Origin: Oscillospiraceae bacterium
Lineage (GTDB): Bacteria; Bacillota; Clostridia; Oscillospirales; Oscillospiraceae
NCBI GenBank assembly: GCA_015067585.1
Contig: SVMC01000001.1
Location: forward strand, 33,876-97,875
Length of the DNA stretch: 64,000 nucleotides
Reading direction: 5' to 3'
The position numbers were made by a program, and so were the translations under genes. Below the pieces are notes generated by a model. That model was not told where the DNA came from and did no database searches. It worked only from the letters and a program-made list of their open reading frames with translations. Below, one piece after another: positions 27,878-33,905 of the stretch; position 1 is the stretch's first letter; each line of letters opens with the position of its first letter.

Positions 27878-28504
27878 ATGAAAAAAACCATCGTACTGTG
27901 CATTCTGACTGCCCTTCTCTTCACCGGCTGCGCCCGAATGCCGGTTCAGCCTGAGCCTGCCGCCCCTGAGGTGGTCGACCCGACCGTTACCGGGACCACC
28001 AACGAGACGATGCCGGCCGCTGAAACTGCTTCTGCAGCACAGCCCGGCGGCGGGATCACGGAGGAGGAAGCAAAAGATATCGCCATCTCCCATGCAGGCC
28101 TCACGCAGGATCAGGTCACCTTCGTCAAGAGCCATCTGGATCCGGAGGACGGCCGCAAGGTCTATGATGTGGAATTCTACACCCAAGACTTCAAAGAATA
28201 CGATTATGAGATCAACGCCGAGACCGGCGAGATCGTAGAATTCGATTCTGACGCGGAATTCTATGCACCCCCGGCGGACAGCGGCGCTGTCGGCGGCATC
28301 ACAGAGGACAGTGCAAAGGCCCTCGCCCTCGAAAGAGTACCGGGCGCGACCCTTTCCGACATCCGGGAATTCAAAGCGGACCACGACGACGGACGGCTGG
28401 AATATGAAGGCACCATCGTCTTCGACAAGACAGAATACGAATTCGAGATCGATGCCGCCACCGGCGAATTTCTGAGCTGGGAAGCGGAGTCCGTATTTGA
28501 TTGA
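27878..28504 (+). CDS. PepSY-domain lipoprotein (two PepSY repeats)
   Basis: Lipobox LFTGC. Repeated I(T/S)EE.AK..AL......(V/L).......D(D/G)....YE(V/G)....... EYE.EI.A.TGE. Confidence 0.8.
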   Translation: MKKTIVLCILTALLFTGCARMPVQPEPAAPEVVDPTVTGTTNETMPAAETASAAQPGGGITEEEAKDIAISHAGLTQDQVTFVKSHLDPEDGRKVYDVEFYTQDFKEYDYEINAETGEIVEFDSDAEFYAPPADSGAVGGITEDSAKALALERVPGATLSDIREFKADHDDGRLEYEGTIVFDKTEYEFEIDAATGEFLSWEAESVFD

Positions 28505-32191: not shown

Positions 32192-32495
32192 TGGGGAGAC
32201 AGTGGATTCGATCGGGTTGCTTGCCTCTCAGAAAGGAGATTTTGTATGTTTATGTTTAAGTGACTAATGCATTTGTTGCAACCTTCTTCCGATAAAATAG
32301 AAGAGAAACTGTTGGGGGTTACTAATTGCATATTTGTATGCAATTTTCATAGTATTTCACACCATGGATAGAGGGGACTTTCCGGCGCAGGAGAGATATT
32401 TTGTGTTATCTTGTCCTTATTGTTTTATTTGTCAAAATACACAAAAATATTTTTTTATTTTCATTGCTTCTTACTGTAGCATTATACCAGAATTC

Positions 32496-32504
32496 TGATA
32501 TAAT
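32496..32504 (+). promoter_or_regulatory. Extended -10 promoter element TGATATAAT
   Basis: Read directly. No good -35 box. It lies in an AT-rich tract upstream of the repeat RNA region. Confidence 0.5.
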
Positions 32505-32510
32505 AAAGAT

Positions 32511-32658
32511 GCGGAGGTTCCGCAATGATATAGATTAAAACTCTGTGTCACCGTCATCCTAAGACTTGTAGGGCGCAAGTCACTAATAAAGAATGCCCAC
32601 TGAGTTGATCTTCCCGTAGAGCGCGGGAAGGGTAAACAAAAAAATGCTCACCGAGAAG
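32511..32658 (+). ncRNA. Putative type III antitoxin-like RNA: three units of about 50 nt (hairpin, A-rich linker, YCACYG box)
   Basis: Unit hairpins are at 32511-23 (gcgga/tccgc), 32563-81 (gacttg-tagggcg-caagtc) and 32610-30 (cttcccg-tagagcg-cgggaag). The shared box is aatgcccactgag (32592) / aatgctcaccgag (32643). No ORF is present. Confidence 0.4.
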
Positions 32659-32691
32659 ACGGCCTGCTTACACGCATGGCCGTTTTTCTTT
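32659..32691 (+). terminator. Intrinsic terminator between the repeat RNA and the toxin-like ORF
   Basis: acggcc...ggccgt stem (plus tgc/gca) followed by ttttcttt, 20 nt before the GTG start. Confidence 0.7.
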
Positions 32692-32710
32692 GGCTAAGAG
32701 GTGTCGAATC

Positions 32711-33139
32711 GTGCTGAACATTGTATTCTTAACAAAGAAATTCTTCTCAGACTATGCTGGCTGTGATGAAATAAGAACAAAAGAAAAGCGGCCCTATGTC
32801 TGTATATATGTTGTGGTCGATGGTGTGTTGTGGGCGATTCCTCTGCGTTCTCATATCAGCCACGAATATGTTATCTGGACGGATAAAGAAAACGGATGTG
32901 GCATTGATTTTTCAAAGGCGGTTGCAATTAGTAAGCCAGATGAATACATATCAAGTCAGAAACCCTATATCCGACCAAATGAATTTGCTGTATTGAAAAA
33001 GATAAACAAGTACACCATTGTTCAGAAAATGAAGCAATATATGAAAGCATATCTGAATGCAAAGAATCATCCGGAAATTGCACGAAATAAGCAATTATTA
33101 GAATTCTCTACACTTCAGTATTTCGAAGAATACTTGTAA
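32711..33139 (+). CDS. ToxN/AbiQ-like (type III TA endoribonuclease toxin-like) protein, about 142 aa
   Basis: RBS AAGAGGTG plus a GTG at 32711 (track start 32690). The core KRPYVCIYVVVDGVLWAIPLRSHIS resembles the RP(Y/F)(I/V)G(I/V)......Y(F/L)APL(S/T)S motif of ToxN/AbiQ. The gene is AT-rich. Confidence 0.55.
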   Translation: MLNIVFLTKKFFSDYAGCDEIRTKEKRPYVCIYVVVDGVLWAIPLRSHISHEYVIWTDKENGCGIDFSKAVAISKPDEYISSQKPYIRPNEFAVLKKINKYTIVQKMKQYMKAYLNAKNHPEIARNKQLLEFSTLQYFEEYL

Positions 33140-33233
33140 CACCATAGGGTGGCTCGCTTTTTCTATGCACTTTCGTCGATAGGAATTGCTTTCGTGACGA
33201 ATTCTCTTCTGTTCGTTGATGTCTTACCAGAGA

Positions 33234-33272
33234 GAATTCCTGAGCTGGGAAGCGGAATCCATTTTTGATTGA
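33234..33272 (+). pseudogene. 3'-terminal remnant of a PepSY-protein paralog (EFLSWEAESIFD-stop)
   Basis: 35/39 nt identical to the 3' end of the intact PepSY gene (28466..28504), including the stop codon. No upstream coding sequence remains. Confidence 0.7.
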
Positions 33273-33287
33273 CAGTAACGATAACGA

Positions 33288-33315
33288 ACCCCCGGACGGC
33301 TTGCCGTCCGGGGGT
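33288..33315. terminator. Bidirectional GC hairpin (acccccggacgg / ccgtccgggggt)
   Basis: 12-bp perfect stem with a 4-nt loop, between the remnant and the convergent HD gene. Confidence 0.7.
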
Positions 33316-33323
33316 AACTATGT

Positions 33324-33905
33324 TTATAGGGTTTCCAGTTCGTCCAGATTTCTGGCGAAGGCGGGAAGGCAGCGCTCCATGAACCAGTCCAGTTCGGGGC
33401 GGTGCATGTCCTCCAGGGCTTTTCTCGTCTGGCGGCAGGCGGCTTCGAATTCGGTGTTGCCTGCTTTCAGCTCCTCGATGCATTTGATGTGGGCGCTGAG
33501 CTTGTCCGCGGCTTTGACGATGGGCAGCACACTTTCGTCCGATTCCATCAGGGGCGCTTCCAAGCCCTGCCGCAGCTCCGGGGGCAGCATGGTAAGCAGC
33601 CGCTCACAGCTCACCCGCTCCACCTGCTTATAGGCATGGCGGATCTCAGGATTATAGTATTTGATGGGGGTGGGCAGATCGCCGGTGAGGATCTCGCCGG
33701 CATCGTGGAACAGGGCCGCTGTGGCGCAGCGCTCCGGGTCTGCCTCCAGACCCAGCACATCCCGGCGGATCAGCGCTAAGGCATGGGCCAGCACCGCCAC
33801 CATATGGCTGTGCTCCTGAATGTTCTCGGAAAATGTATTTCTCATCAGGCTCCAGCGGGTGATGTAGCGCATCCGCGAGAGCATGGCATAAAACGGATAA
33901 TCCAT
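33324..33905 (-). CDS. HD-domain 5'-deoxynucleotidase, YfbR-like
   Basis: Carries L.R..RW.......ENI.EHS..VA..AH and LFHD..E..TGD.PTP. Confidence 0.85.
   Translation of the reverse strand: MDYPFYAMLSRMRYITRWSLMRNTFSENIQEHSHMVAVLAHALALIRRDVLGLEADPERCATAALFHDAGEILTGDLPTPIKYYNPEIRHAYKQVERVSCERLLTMLPPELRQGLEAPLMESDESVLPIVKAADKLSAHIKCIEELKAGNTEFEAACRQTRKALEDMHRPELDWFMERCLPAFARNLDELETL

Follow-up and report, generated by a model that had tools for sequence, protein, structure and literature searches.

A probable tenpIN type III toxin–antitoxin module with two non-identical antitoxin units in an uncultured Oscillospiraceae bacterium

Introduction

Type III toxin–antitoxin (TA) systems of the tenpIN family are arranged as a promoter, about two repeats of about 50 nucleotides (nt), a terminator and a toxin gene. 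Published ranges for the antitoxin repeats (tenpI) are 39–57 nt and 1.9–3.0 copies, and TenpIN of Photorhabdus luminescens TT01, whose toxin has 143 amino acids (aa), is a working toxin–antitoxin pair that, in E. coli, aborts infection by coliphages (Blower 2012, PMC3401426). Within tenpI arrays the repeats frequently differ from one another, by as much as 35%, and most arrays escape Tandem Repeats Finder; a design of stem 1, A-stretch and pseudoknot stem 2 was proposed for the repeats from enterobacterial and ESKAPE loci, and whether both non-identical repeats work was left open (Nadig 2025, PMC12283969). Here, a locus in a 64,000-nt stretch of an uncultured Oscillospiraceae bacterium (GenBank assembly GCA_015067585.1, contig SVMC01000001.1, positions 33,876–97,875; hereafter the window, in which all positions are counted unless a related locus is named) was analysed and is, in our assessment, very probably a chromosomal tenpIN type III TA, or abortive-infection, module.

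Other type III systems served for comparison. ToxIN (P. atrosepticum, B. thuringiensis) and AbiQ/antiQ share with the window locus the operon logic, the predicted toxin fold (TMq 0.56–0.61) and a pseudoknot RNA from a repeat array, whereas the window toxin lacks a Pfam ToxN match and ToxI arrays contain a greater number of shorter repeats (about 36 nt) that are almost identical; a 3:3 triangle assembly is a feature of ToxIN itself. ToxN cuts ToxI once per unit, and the mechanisms of ToxIN and CptIN have been summarised (PMC5086642). CptIN of Eubacterium rectale (4RMO) has about two repeats of 40–48 nt, an A-rich stretch (A-minor contacts) and a Firmicutes gut host, and gave the best structural match to the window toxin; unlike the window locus, it has near-identical CptI repeats and a toxin of a separate family by sequence.

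An initial annotation of the window, made from the sequence alone, had described the locus as an AT-rich islet with the layout of a type III module, a ToxN-like toxin and three unusually degenerate antitoxin repeats, and had raised the possibility of a divergent or undescribed subfamily. The features as they were found in the present analysis are collected in table 1.

Table 1. Features of the tenpIN locus and its immediate surroundings in the window.
Feature	Position	Strand	Basis and remarks
extended −10 promoter element TGATATAAT of the tenpIN operon	32496–32504	+	sequence reading; TATAAT conservation
5'-terminal leader hairpin, tGCGGA-ggt-TCCGCa	32510–32524	+	fold; conservation in relatives
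variable spacer with second predicted hairpin (32526–32550)	32525–32561	+	fold
distal tenpI antitoxin unit (6A-type), putative, 44 nt	32562–32605	+	R1 and weak Rfam match; covariation
distal unit, stem 1	32563–32568 with 32576–32581	+	GACTTG/CAAGTC
distal unit, pseudoknot stem 2	32571–32574 (loop GGGC) with 32595–32598 (box GCCC)	+	A-rich linker between stem 1 hairpin and box
proximal tenpI antitoxin unit (canonical 6A RNA), putative, 51 nt	32606–32656	+	Rfam and R1
proximal unit, stem 1	32610–32616 with 32624–32630	+	CTTCCCG/CGGGAAG
proximal unit, pseudoknot stem 2	32619–32622 (loop GAGC) with 32646–32649 (box GCTC)	+	A-rich linker including AAAAAAA
Rho-independent terminator between antitoxin RNA and toxin	32655–32693	+	G+C stem 32660–32682 with one bulge, then T-run
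ribosome-binding site AAGAGGTG	32696–32703	+	7 nt before GTG
tenpN, 142 aa, GTG start, predicted ToxN-like endoribonuclease	32711–33139	+	profile, homologues, predicted fold
probable bidirectional terminator hairpin ACCCCCGGACGGCTTGCCGTCCGGGGGT, between convergent tenpN and HD-hydrolase gene (33324–33905, minus strand)	33288–33315	.	terminator scan

Family assignment and predicted fold of the toxin

The 142-aa open reading frame (ORF) of the initial annotation was present as described, with its GTG start and the quoted core KRPYVCIYVVVDGVLWAIPLRSHIS. It matched the NCBIfam equivalog model NF047358.1 ('type III toxin-antitoxin system TenpIN family toxin') with 131.4 bits against a cutoff of 90 (E = 2.6e-38), the match covering residues 7–142 and the full length of the profile (positions 1–141 of 141). 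A database search gave 141 homologues, most of them exactly 142 aa long and one named TenpIN toxin by NCBI. By tblastn, the ORF was 36% identical to a TenpN-like gene of the Granulicella tundricola plasmid pACIX905, which figures in the original list of tenpIN systems (Blower 2012, PMC3401426), and about 30% identical to genes on small enterobacterial plasmids; tblastn against GenBank phage records gave no match to the toxin. The start at GTG 32711 is supported because an NTG aligns there in relatives, at a fixed distance after GAGGTG. The toxin also matched the PHROG family phrog_8049 (function unknown) with E = 3e-22, and that phage protein family is therefore TenpN-like.

In TenpN the residues R36, Y38, P53, R55, H60, G75, D77 and K80 (E. 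faecium numbering) are absolutely conserved (Nadig 2025, PMC12283969). The signature residues of the window toxin are R27, Y29, P44, R46, H51, G64, D66 and K69, a correspondence that was drawn by spacing and motif and not by joint alignment with the published sequences; in an alignment of 30 toxin sequences seven of them were invariant and Y29 was kept in at least 90%.

An AlphaFold2 model built from the same 30-sequence alignment reached a pLDDT of 92.4 and a pTM of 0.87. Its best four Foldseek matches in the Protein Data Bank (PDB) were the four solved type III toxins, namely CptN (4RMO), ToxN (4ATO and 2XD0) and AbiQ (4GLK), with probabilities of 0.98–1.0 and TMq of 0.51–0.61, followed by MazF and Kid; no TenpN structure was found in the PDB copy that was searched. 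When the profile was aligned with CptN, a weak match (E = 0.18), RPY fell on RPH and PLRS on IPLSS, and the equivalent region of ToxN supplies the active-site residues Tyr29, Thr52 and Ser53 (review PMC5086642). The toxin is thus predicted to be a ToxN-like endoribonuclease, and that part of the initial annotation was borne out by the NCBIfam profile and the predicted fold.

The antitoxin leader

A covariance model (R1) was built from 37 toxin-proximal units of the related loci described below and was applied to the leader together with Rfam. The proximal unit matched Rfam RF02925 ('6A RNA') with 58.1 bits against a gathering score of 41.2 (E = 1e-10), the sole above-threshold match in the region, and R1 with 72.5 bits. 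The distal unit scored 22.4 bits with R1 (E = 0.003 in 511 kb, 1.7e-6 locally) and 16.6 bits with the Rfam model. The proximal unit fits the whole 52-nt Rfam model, with the same hairpin, UAGAGC loop, A-run and GCUCACUGAGA tail; Rfam models the hairpin only, whereas the pseudoknot and the position upstream of TenpN are added here. Tandem Repeats Finder and a gapless repeat finder reported no tandem repeat in the leader, so the repeats are visible only to structure-aware models.

The second and third repeats of the initial annotation correspond to the distal and proximal units, and their different stems, near-identical loops and shared boxes were all recovered (table 1). Its count of three did not hold: only two abutting units were found, and with all filters off the rest of the leader, including the supposed first unit (32510–32560), scored at most 2.6 bits with R1. 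The TCACCG sequence that had been taken for the YCACYG box of that first unit is not kept in relatives. Reading the segment as a degenerate third repeat was rejected on an alignment of the leader with its ten closest relatives, in which it resolves into the 5' hairpin and the variable spacer. The spacer was only about 47% identical to the closest relatives, varied in sequence and length, and was absent entirely from one related locus (L004; related loci are cited by our own labels). Close relatives have kept the hairpin (GCGGAG..TCCGC), and its variants in L009 and L014 are compensatory. Other subclades begin the leader differently, the distal unit following almost directly after the −10 element or after a different small hairpin (AAGG-GAAA-CCTT), and 32510–32524 is therefore a clade-specific 5'-terminal hairpin. 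As it starts about 6–7 nt past the −10 element, it would lie at the predicted 5' end of the transcript. Terminal stem-loops of this kind stabilise transcripts in Firmicutes, and the hairpin may, by analogy, do so here.

At 44 and 51 nt, with two copies and, behind the second, the opening bases of the boundary motif, the array lies within the published tenpI ranges. The two units were 64% identical, and among 56 loci the median was 69% (range 59–98%), the window ranking 13. The repeats are thus not unusually degenerate, as had first been thought, and non-identical tenpI repeats were already in print in 2025. The locus agrees with the tenpIN family in its toxin profile, signature residues and toxin length, in the order of its elements and in non-identical repeats with an A-stretch, stem 1 and pseudoknot stem 2; it is unlike the described members in its host (an Oscillospiraceae chromosome), in the extra 5' hairpin and spacer ahead of the repeats, and in a distal unit 7 nt shorter than the proximal one.

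That the locus represents a new type III subfamily whose three repeats have strongly degenerated, a suggestion which could draw on the blank result of Tandem Repeats Finder and on a toxin unmatched by Pfam ToxN and by the PADLOC models, is hardly credible beside these results: the TenpIN equivalog model was passed over its full length, the supposed first unit has no similarity to the others and belongs to a clade-specific leader, and two non-identical units are the norm in the 56 loci. Of the initial proposal, the type III TA module itself therefore stood, on the TenpIN profile and the operon order, and the divergent or undescribed subfamily did not, the toxin being well above the cutoff of a curated family.

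Pseudoknot structure and covariation

The initial annotation had noted that the loops and boxes of the two units were almost alike and had missed that the lone difference between the loops (GGGC versus GAGC) and the lone difference between the boxes (GCCC versus GCTC) are mutually compensatory. This compensation identifies loop and box as the second stem of an H-type pseudoknot: each unit is a hairpin whose loop pairs with the 3' box across the A-rich linker.

Covariation was examined across about 50 related loci and supported both helices. For stem 1 in 37 proximal units, all 7 pairs showed double-sided changes, and 98.8% of the cells were paired, against 36–41% in slid controls. For stem 2 in 49 distal units, the 4-bp helix was paired in 99.5% of the cells (30–39% in slid controls), with compensatory changes at all 4 pairs (in 1, 11, 12 and 3 sequences, respectively), and the pair types found were GAAC/GUUC, GGGC/GCCC, GGAC/GUCC, GGAU/AUCC, AAGC/GCUU and GAGU/ACUC. 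Stem 1 of the distal unit was likewise retained, with compensatory changes. The two units of a locus carried different pseudoknot pairs in 16 of 30 loci, the proximal unit having almost always GAGC/GCUC.

Related loci and 6A RNA

Eighty genomic and 34 viral-contig loci were fetched, all of which encode relatives of the toxin. Matches to 6A RNA at or above the gathering score were located immediately upstream of the toxin and on its strand in 20/20 close loci and in 17/20 more distant ones. With R1, units were found in 111 of the 114 loci, two of the three exceptions being cut at a contig end, and the conserved non-coding region that the initial annotation had expected upstream of homologues is thus present. 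As in the window, the array of most loci consisted of two abutting units and no more; the proximal unit measured about 51 nt and scored strongly, and the distal one, 39–52 nt long, scored less. The same design was found, more weakly, upstream of TenpN on plasmids of distant hosts: C. estertheticum (Rfam 6A, 52 bits), Leptotrichia (two tandem copies of about 36 bits each), Priestia, Granulicella pACIX905 (R1, 19.9 bits) and Klebsiella. Three loci were atypical. In L023 (2741–2923) four weak or partial matches about 43 nt apart could represent a longer array, and in L022 and L025 (2850–2952) the distal unit outscored the proximal one (51.5 versus 38–39 bits), reversing the usual asymmetry.

The 6A motif was described by Weinberg et al. 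2017 (PMC5737381) and is listed in Rfam as a small RNA without assigned function. From its loop–box pseudoknot and its constant position upstream of TenpN, we conclude from sequence comparison that 6A RNA is the tenpI antitoxin repeat. No paper linking 6A RNA with type III systems was found; the 2017 supplement that describes 6A lay outside this search and may note the neighbouring gene. The assignment would give a function to an unassigned RNA family and would make its covariance model a ready means of finding tenpIN loci. For the present genome, the islet would be a routine annotation, a tenpIN module with a probable role in phage defence; the toxin had received no Pfam label from gene callers, and the RNA had gone unannotated.

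Transcription-attenuation systems, too, place a structured leader and then a terminator ahead of a gene, and Rfam's entry for 6A as a small RNA of unassigned function would be compatible with a cis-acting, attenuator- or riboswitch-like leader of a non-toxic gene in place of a trans-acting antitoxin. We hold this to be very improbable. What follows the leader is a TenpN equivalog whose predicted fold is that of ToxN, CptN and AbiQ, the units are in tandem with a repeated boundary motif, no alternative anti-terminator pairing was apparent in the folds, single orphan units exist without such a gene downstream, and the homologous P. luminescens repeats neutralise their toxin in trans (PMC3401426).

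Such orphan units of 6A/tenpI type (51–62 bits) were found on viral contigs, with no TenpN downstream, in L142 (3549–3600), L135 (10907–10958, minus strand) and L141 (1294–1344, minus strand). On ORF reading, the neighbour in L142 was a tyrosine-recombinase (integrase)-like ORF and that in L135 a TnpB-like ORF. The orphan units could be remnants or phage-borne antitoxin mimics.

Constraint on the two units

The units of the window (32562–32656) were 96–98% identical in DNA to L089 2855–2949 and L001 2856–2950, whereas the toxin coding sequences of the same loci were only 64–71% identical to that of the window (58–73% in aa). The differences in L001 include a compensatory pair, GGGC/GCCC to GAGC/GCTC. 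Such near-identity of the antitoxin RNA would reflect either extreme constraint on the RNA or exchange of RNA and toxin as separate modules, and the occurrence of near-identical antitoxins beside diverged toxins suggests that cross-neutralisation is possible.

It could be argued that only the proximal unit is a working antitoxin and that the distal one is a decaying duplicate, kept merely for the upstream cleavage site. The distal unit of the window is the shorter of the two and scores far below the proximal one with both models, distal units are less conserved across loci (mean column identity 60% versus 74%), and whether both repeats work is the very point left open by Nadig 2025. We nevertheless consider this unlikely, since the distal pseudoknot helix is almost invariably paired, with compensatory changes at every pair, stem 1 is retained too, and the distal unit of the window shares the 96–98% identity to units that stand beside much more diverged toxins. 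On this last comparison, the distal unit is under purifying selection and not decaying, and the covariation evidence shows both non-identical units to be under structural selection, which bears on the question of Nadig et al. 2025 whether both repeats are functional.

A stronger proposal is that the two units are distinct antitoxin species, both of them required, and not redundant copies. It builds on the finding that the units of an array differ in stem 1 and, in 16/30 loci, in the pseudoknot pairs as well; we regard it as rather doubtful. Were it true, each transcript would yield a single distal and a single proximal RNA, to be combined in a hetero-RNA TenpN complex, and the unlike helices would also stop adjacent units from mispairing. 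One antitoxin pair could then neutralise widely diverged toxins, the RNAs being near-invariant beside toxins only 58% identical, and the orphan 6A units on viral contigs would be phage-borne mimics that disarm TenpIN defence. Antitoxin mimicry is known for phage PhiTE and ToxI.

Operon elements and proposed mechanism

The elements of the operon occur in the order that is typical of the family, with a single promoter, tandem repeats, a Rho-independent terminator and the toxin, and all of them are position-conserved in relatives. The promoter, terminator and ribosome-binding site of the initial annotation were each found again (table 1). In 10 related leaders TATAAT stands almost unchanged at the corresponding position; for want of a good −35, the extended −10 element was not called by a two-hexamer promoter scan. 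The terminator has a folding energy of −18.7 kcal/mol (z = −4.1; no shuffle folded as well), and its position and T-run are kept in relatives, with different stem and loop sequences. It was missed by a simple terminator scan because its stem is bulged. GAGGTG of the ribosome-binding site is likewise kept, with the NTG start at a fixed distance.

Two further observations concern promoters. A 24-nt palindrome (32481–32504, ATTATACCAGAA/TTCTGATATAAT) spans the promoter and places an extended −10 element on both strands, TGATATAAT on the plus strand and TGGTATAAT on the minus strand; the palindrome may serve as a divergent promoter or as an operator, and its upstream half is not kept in relatives. 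A promoter-like site inside the toxin gene (33063–33036, minus strand) was discarded, as the number of sites in the scan was no higher than expected by chance.

A boundary motif, GA(G)W|WGAY, was found at all three unit boundaries of the window (32561/32562, CCTA|AGAC; 32605/32606, GAGT|TGAT; 32656/32657, GAGA|AGAC) and likewise in 49 loci, where the consensus of the successive boundaries was ..GA|AGAU, GAGA|AGAU or GAGU|UGAU, and GAGA|AGA. The bases flanking the junction were AA in some lineages and TT in others. By analogy with ToxN and ToxI, the motif is suggestive of a candidate TenpN cleavage site, used once per unit and releasing two complete units.

Transcription from the single promoter would give an RNA that opens with the 5'-terminal hairpin and the spacer, followed by the two abutting tenpI units, each folded as an H-type pseudoknot in which the loop pairs with the downstream 4-nt box and the A-rich linker bridges the two. 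Most transcripts would end at the terminator, and read-through would carry the ribosome-binding site and tenpN. TenpN, as a ToxN-fold endoribonuclease, would cut the precursor at the boundary motif, as in ToxIN and CptIN, and would stay bound to the processed pseudoknots, which would block its active site. Should the supply of antitoxin fail, for example when a phage shuts off host transcription, free TenpN may cleave cellular and phage RNA, and the infection would be aborted. For the window locus, toxicity, RNA processing with its cleavage site, the make-up of the complex in numbers of RNA and toxin molecules, and defence against phages are predicted by homology with TenpIN of P. luminescens, the one TenpIN whose toxicity and neutralisation have been shown, and with the structures of ToxIN and CptIN.

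Locus and neighbourhood

The AT-rich islet noted initially is real: the GC content was 0.34–0.43 over about 32200–33250 and about 0.55 in both flanks. Upstream lies a PadR–HAAS gene pair, and downstream a convergent gene for a YfbR-like HD 5'-deoxynucleotidase, followed by genes for Mn-catalase and uvrB. The identical toxin protein was found on 6 metagenome contigs from different samples, each time at the same site, and relatives of the module occupy many other contexts, including 34 viral contigs and sites beside tRNA genes. The AT-rich composition and these varied contexts fit a horizontal acquisition of the islet. Neighbourhoods of HD-hydrolase homologues (88–94% identity), compared in search of an empty site, had no shared synteny on either side.

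Several results weigh against the assignment to tenpIN. Pfam, with its ToxN family PF13958, gave no match to the ORF even at E ≤ 10, so the resemblance to ToxN that had first been read from the sequence did not extend to that profile; nor did the PADLOC defence-protein models match the ORF. The PDB gave no significant match by sequence (none at all with the single sequence), and a profile search of the PDB returned CptN only at E = 0.18, as the sole related chain, together with a spurious match to an L4 ribosomal protein. The toxin assignment rests on one curated NCBIfam model, BLAST links and the predicted fold. The distal unit stayed below the Rfam gathering score, and no mobility or phage genes were found adjoining the locus, where a defence role is one that we only infer. 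The ORF shares the predicted fold of ToxN but belongs to TenpN and not to ToxN proper, and by toxin sequence the locus falls outside CptIN, which is a structural relative only.

The isolation of the islet, about 1 kb long and with no adjoining mobile-element genes, could also be taken to mean that the module is an inactive remnant with a dead toxin kept by chance. We consider this most improbable, given that the ORF is full length with every family-invariant residue intact, that the identical protein recurs on the 6 contigs from different samples, and that the promoter, ribosome-binding site, terminator and both RNA structures are intact. A tenpIN module thus remains the preferred reading.

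In several relatives tRNA genes lie near tenpIN (L019 2641–2713, L001 1094–1182, L005 1134–1204 and L018 4391–4553), the tRNA of L019 ending about 140 nt ahead of the distal unit, and this proximity fits insertion at tRNA-linked integration hot spots.

Just 3' of the toxin, positions 33234–33272 are a copy (35/39 bases identical) of the final 39 nt, counting the stop codon, of a PepSY-domain gene (27878–28504; original at 28466–28504). The copy encodes ..EFLSWEAESIFD, against ..EFLSWEAESVFD in the gene, and stop codons lie upstream of it. The two copies flank a 4.8-kb segment with an ABC transporter, LytTR/DUF3021, PadR/HAAS and tenpIN. The duplication could be att-like, arising from insertion into the 3' end of the gene, though the segment has no integrase; alternatively, it could be the remnant of a destroyed paralogue.

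The hairpin between tenpN and the HD-hydrolase gene has 12 pairs, 10 of them G–C, and gave Rfam terminator-like partial matches on both strands; it probably acts as a bidirectional terminator common to both genes. The same hairpin gave spurious partial Rfam matches to P15, isrL and NsiR1. Between the HAAS gene and the tenpIN promoter lies an AT-rich, gene-free stretch of about 300 nt, which contains an inverted repeat (TTGCATA-TTTG-TATGCAA, 32326–32343) and recurs only on contigs with this same locus, where it is 100% identical throughout. In L024, two tandem FuFi-1 RNAs (Rfam RF02986, 100 and 84 bits) were found at 973–1197 and 1501–1740, 1.2–2 kb upstream of the Allofournierella massiliensis tenpIN.

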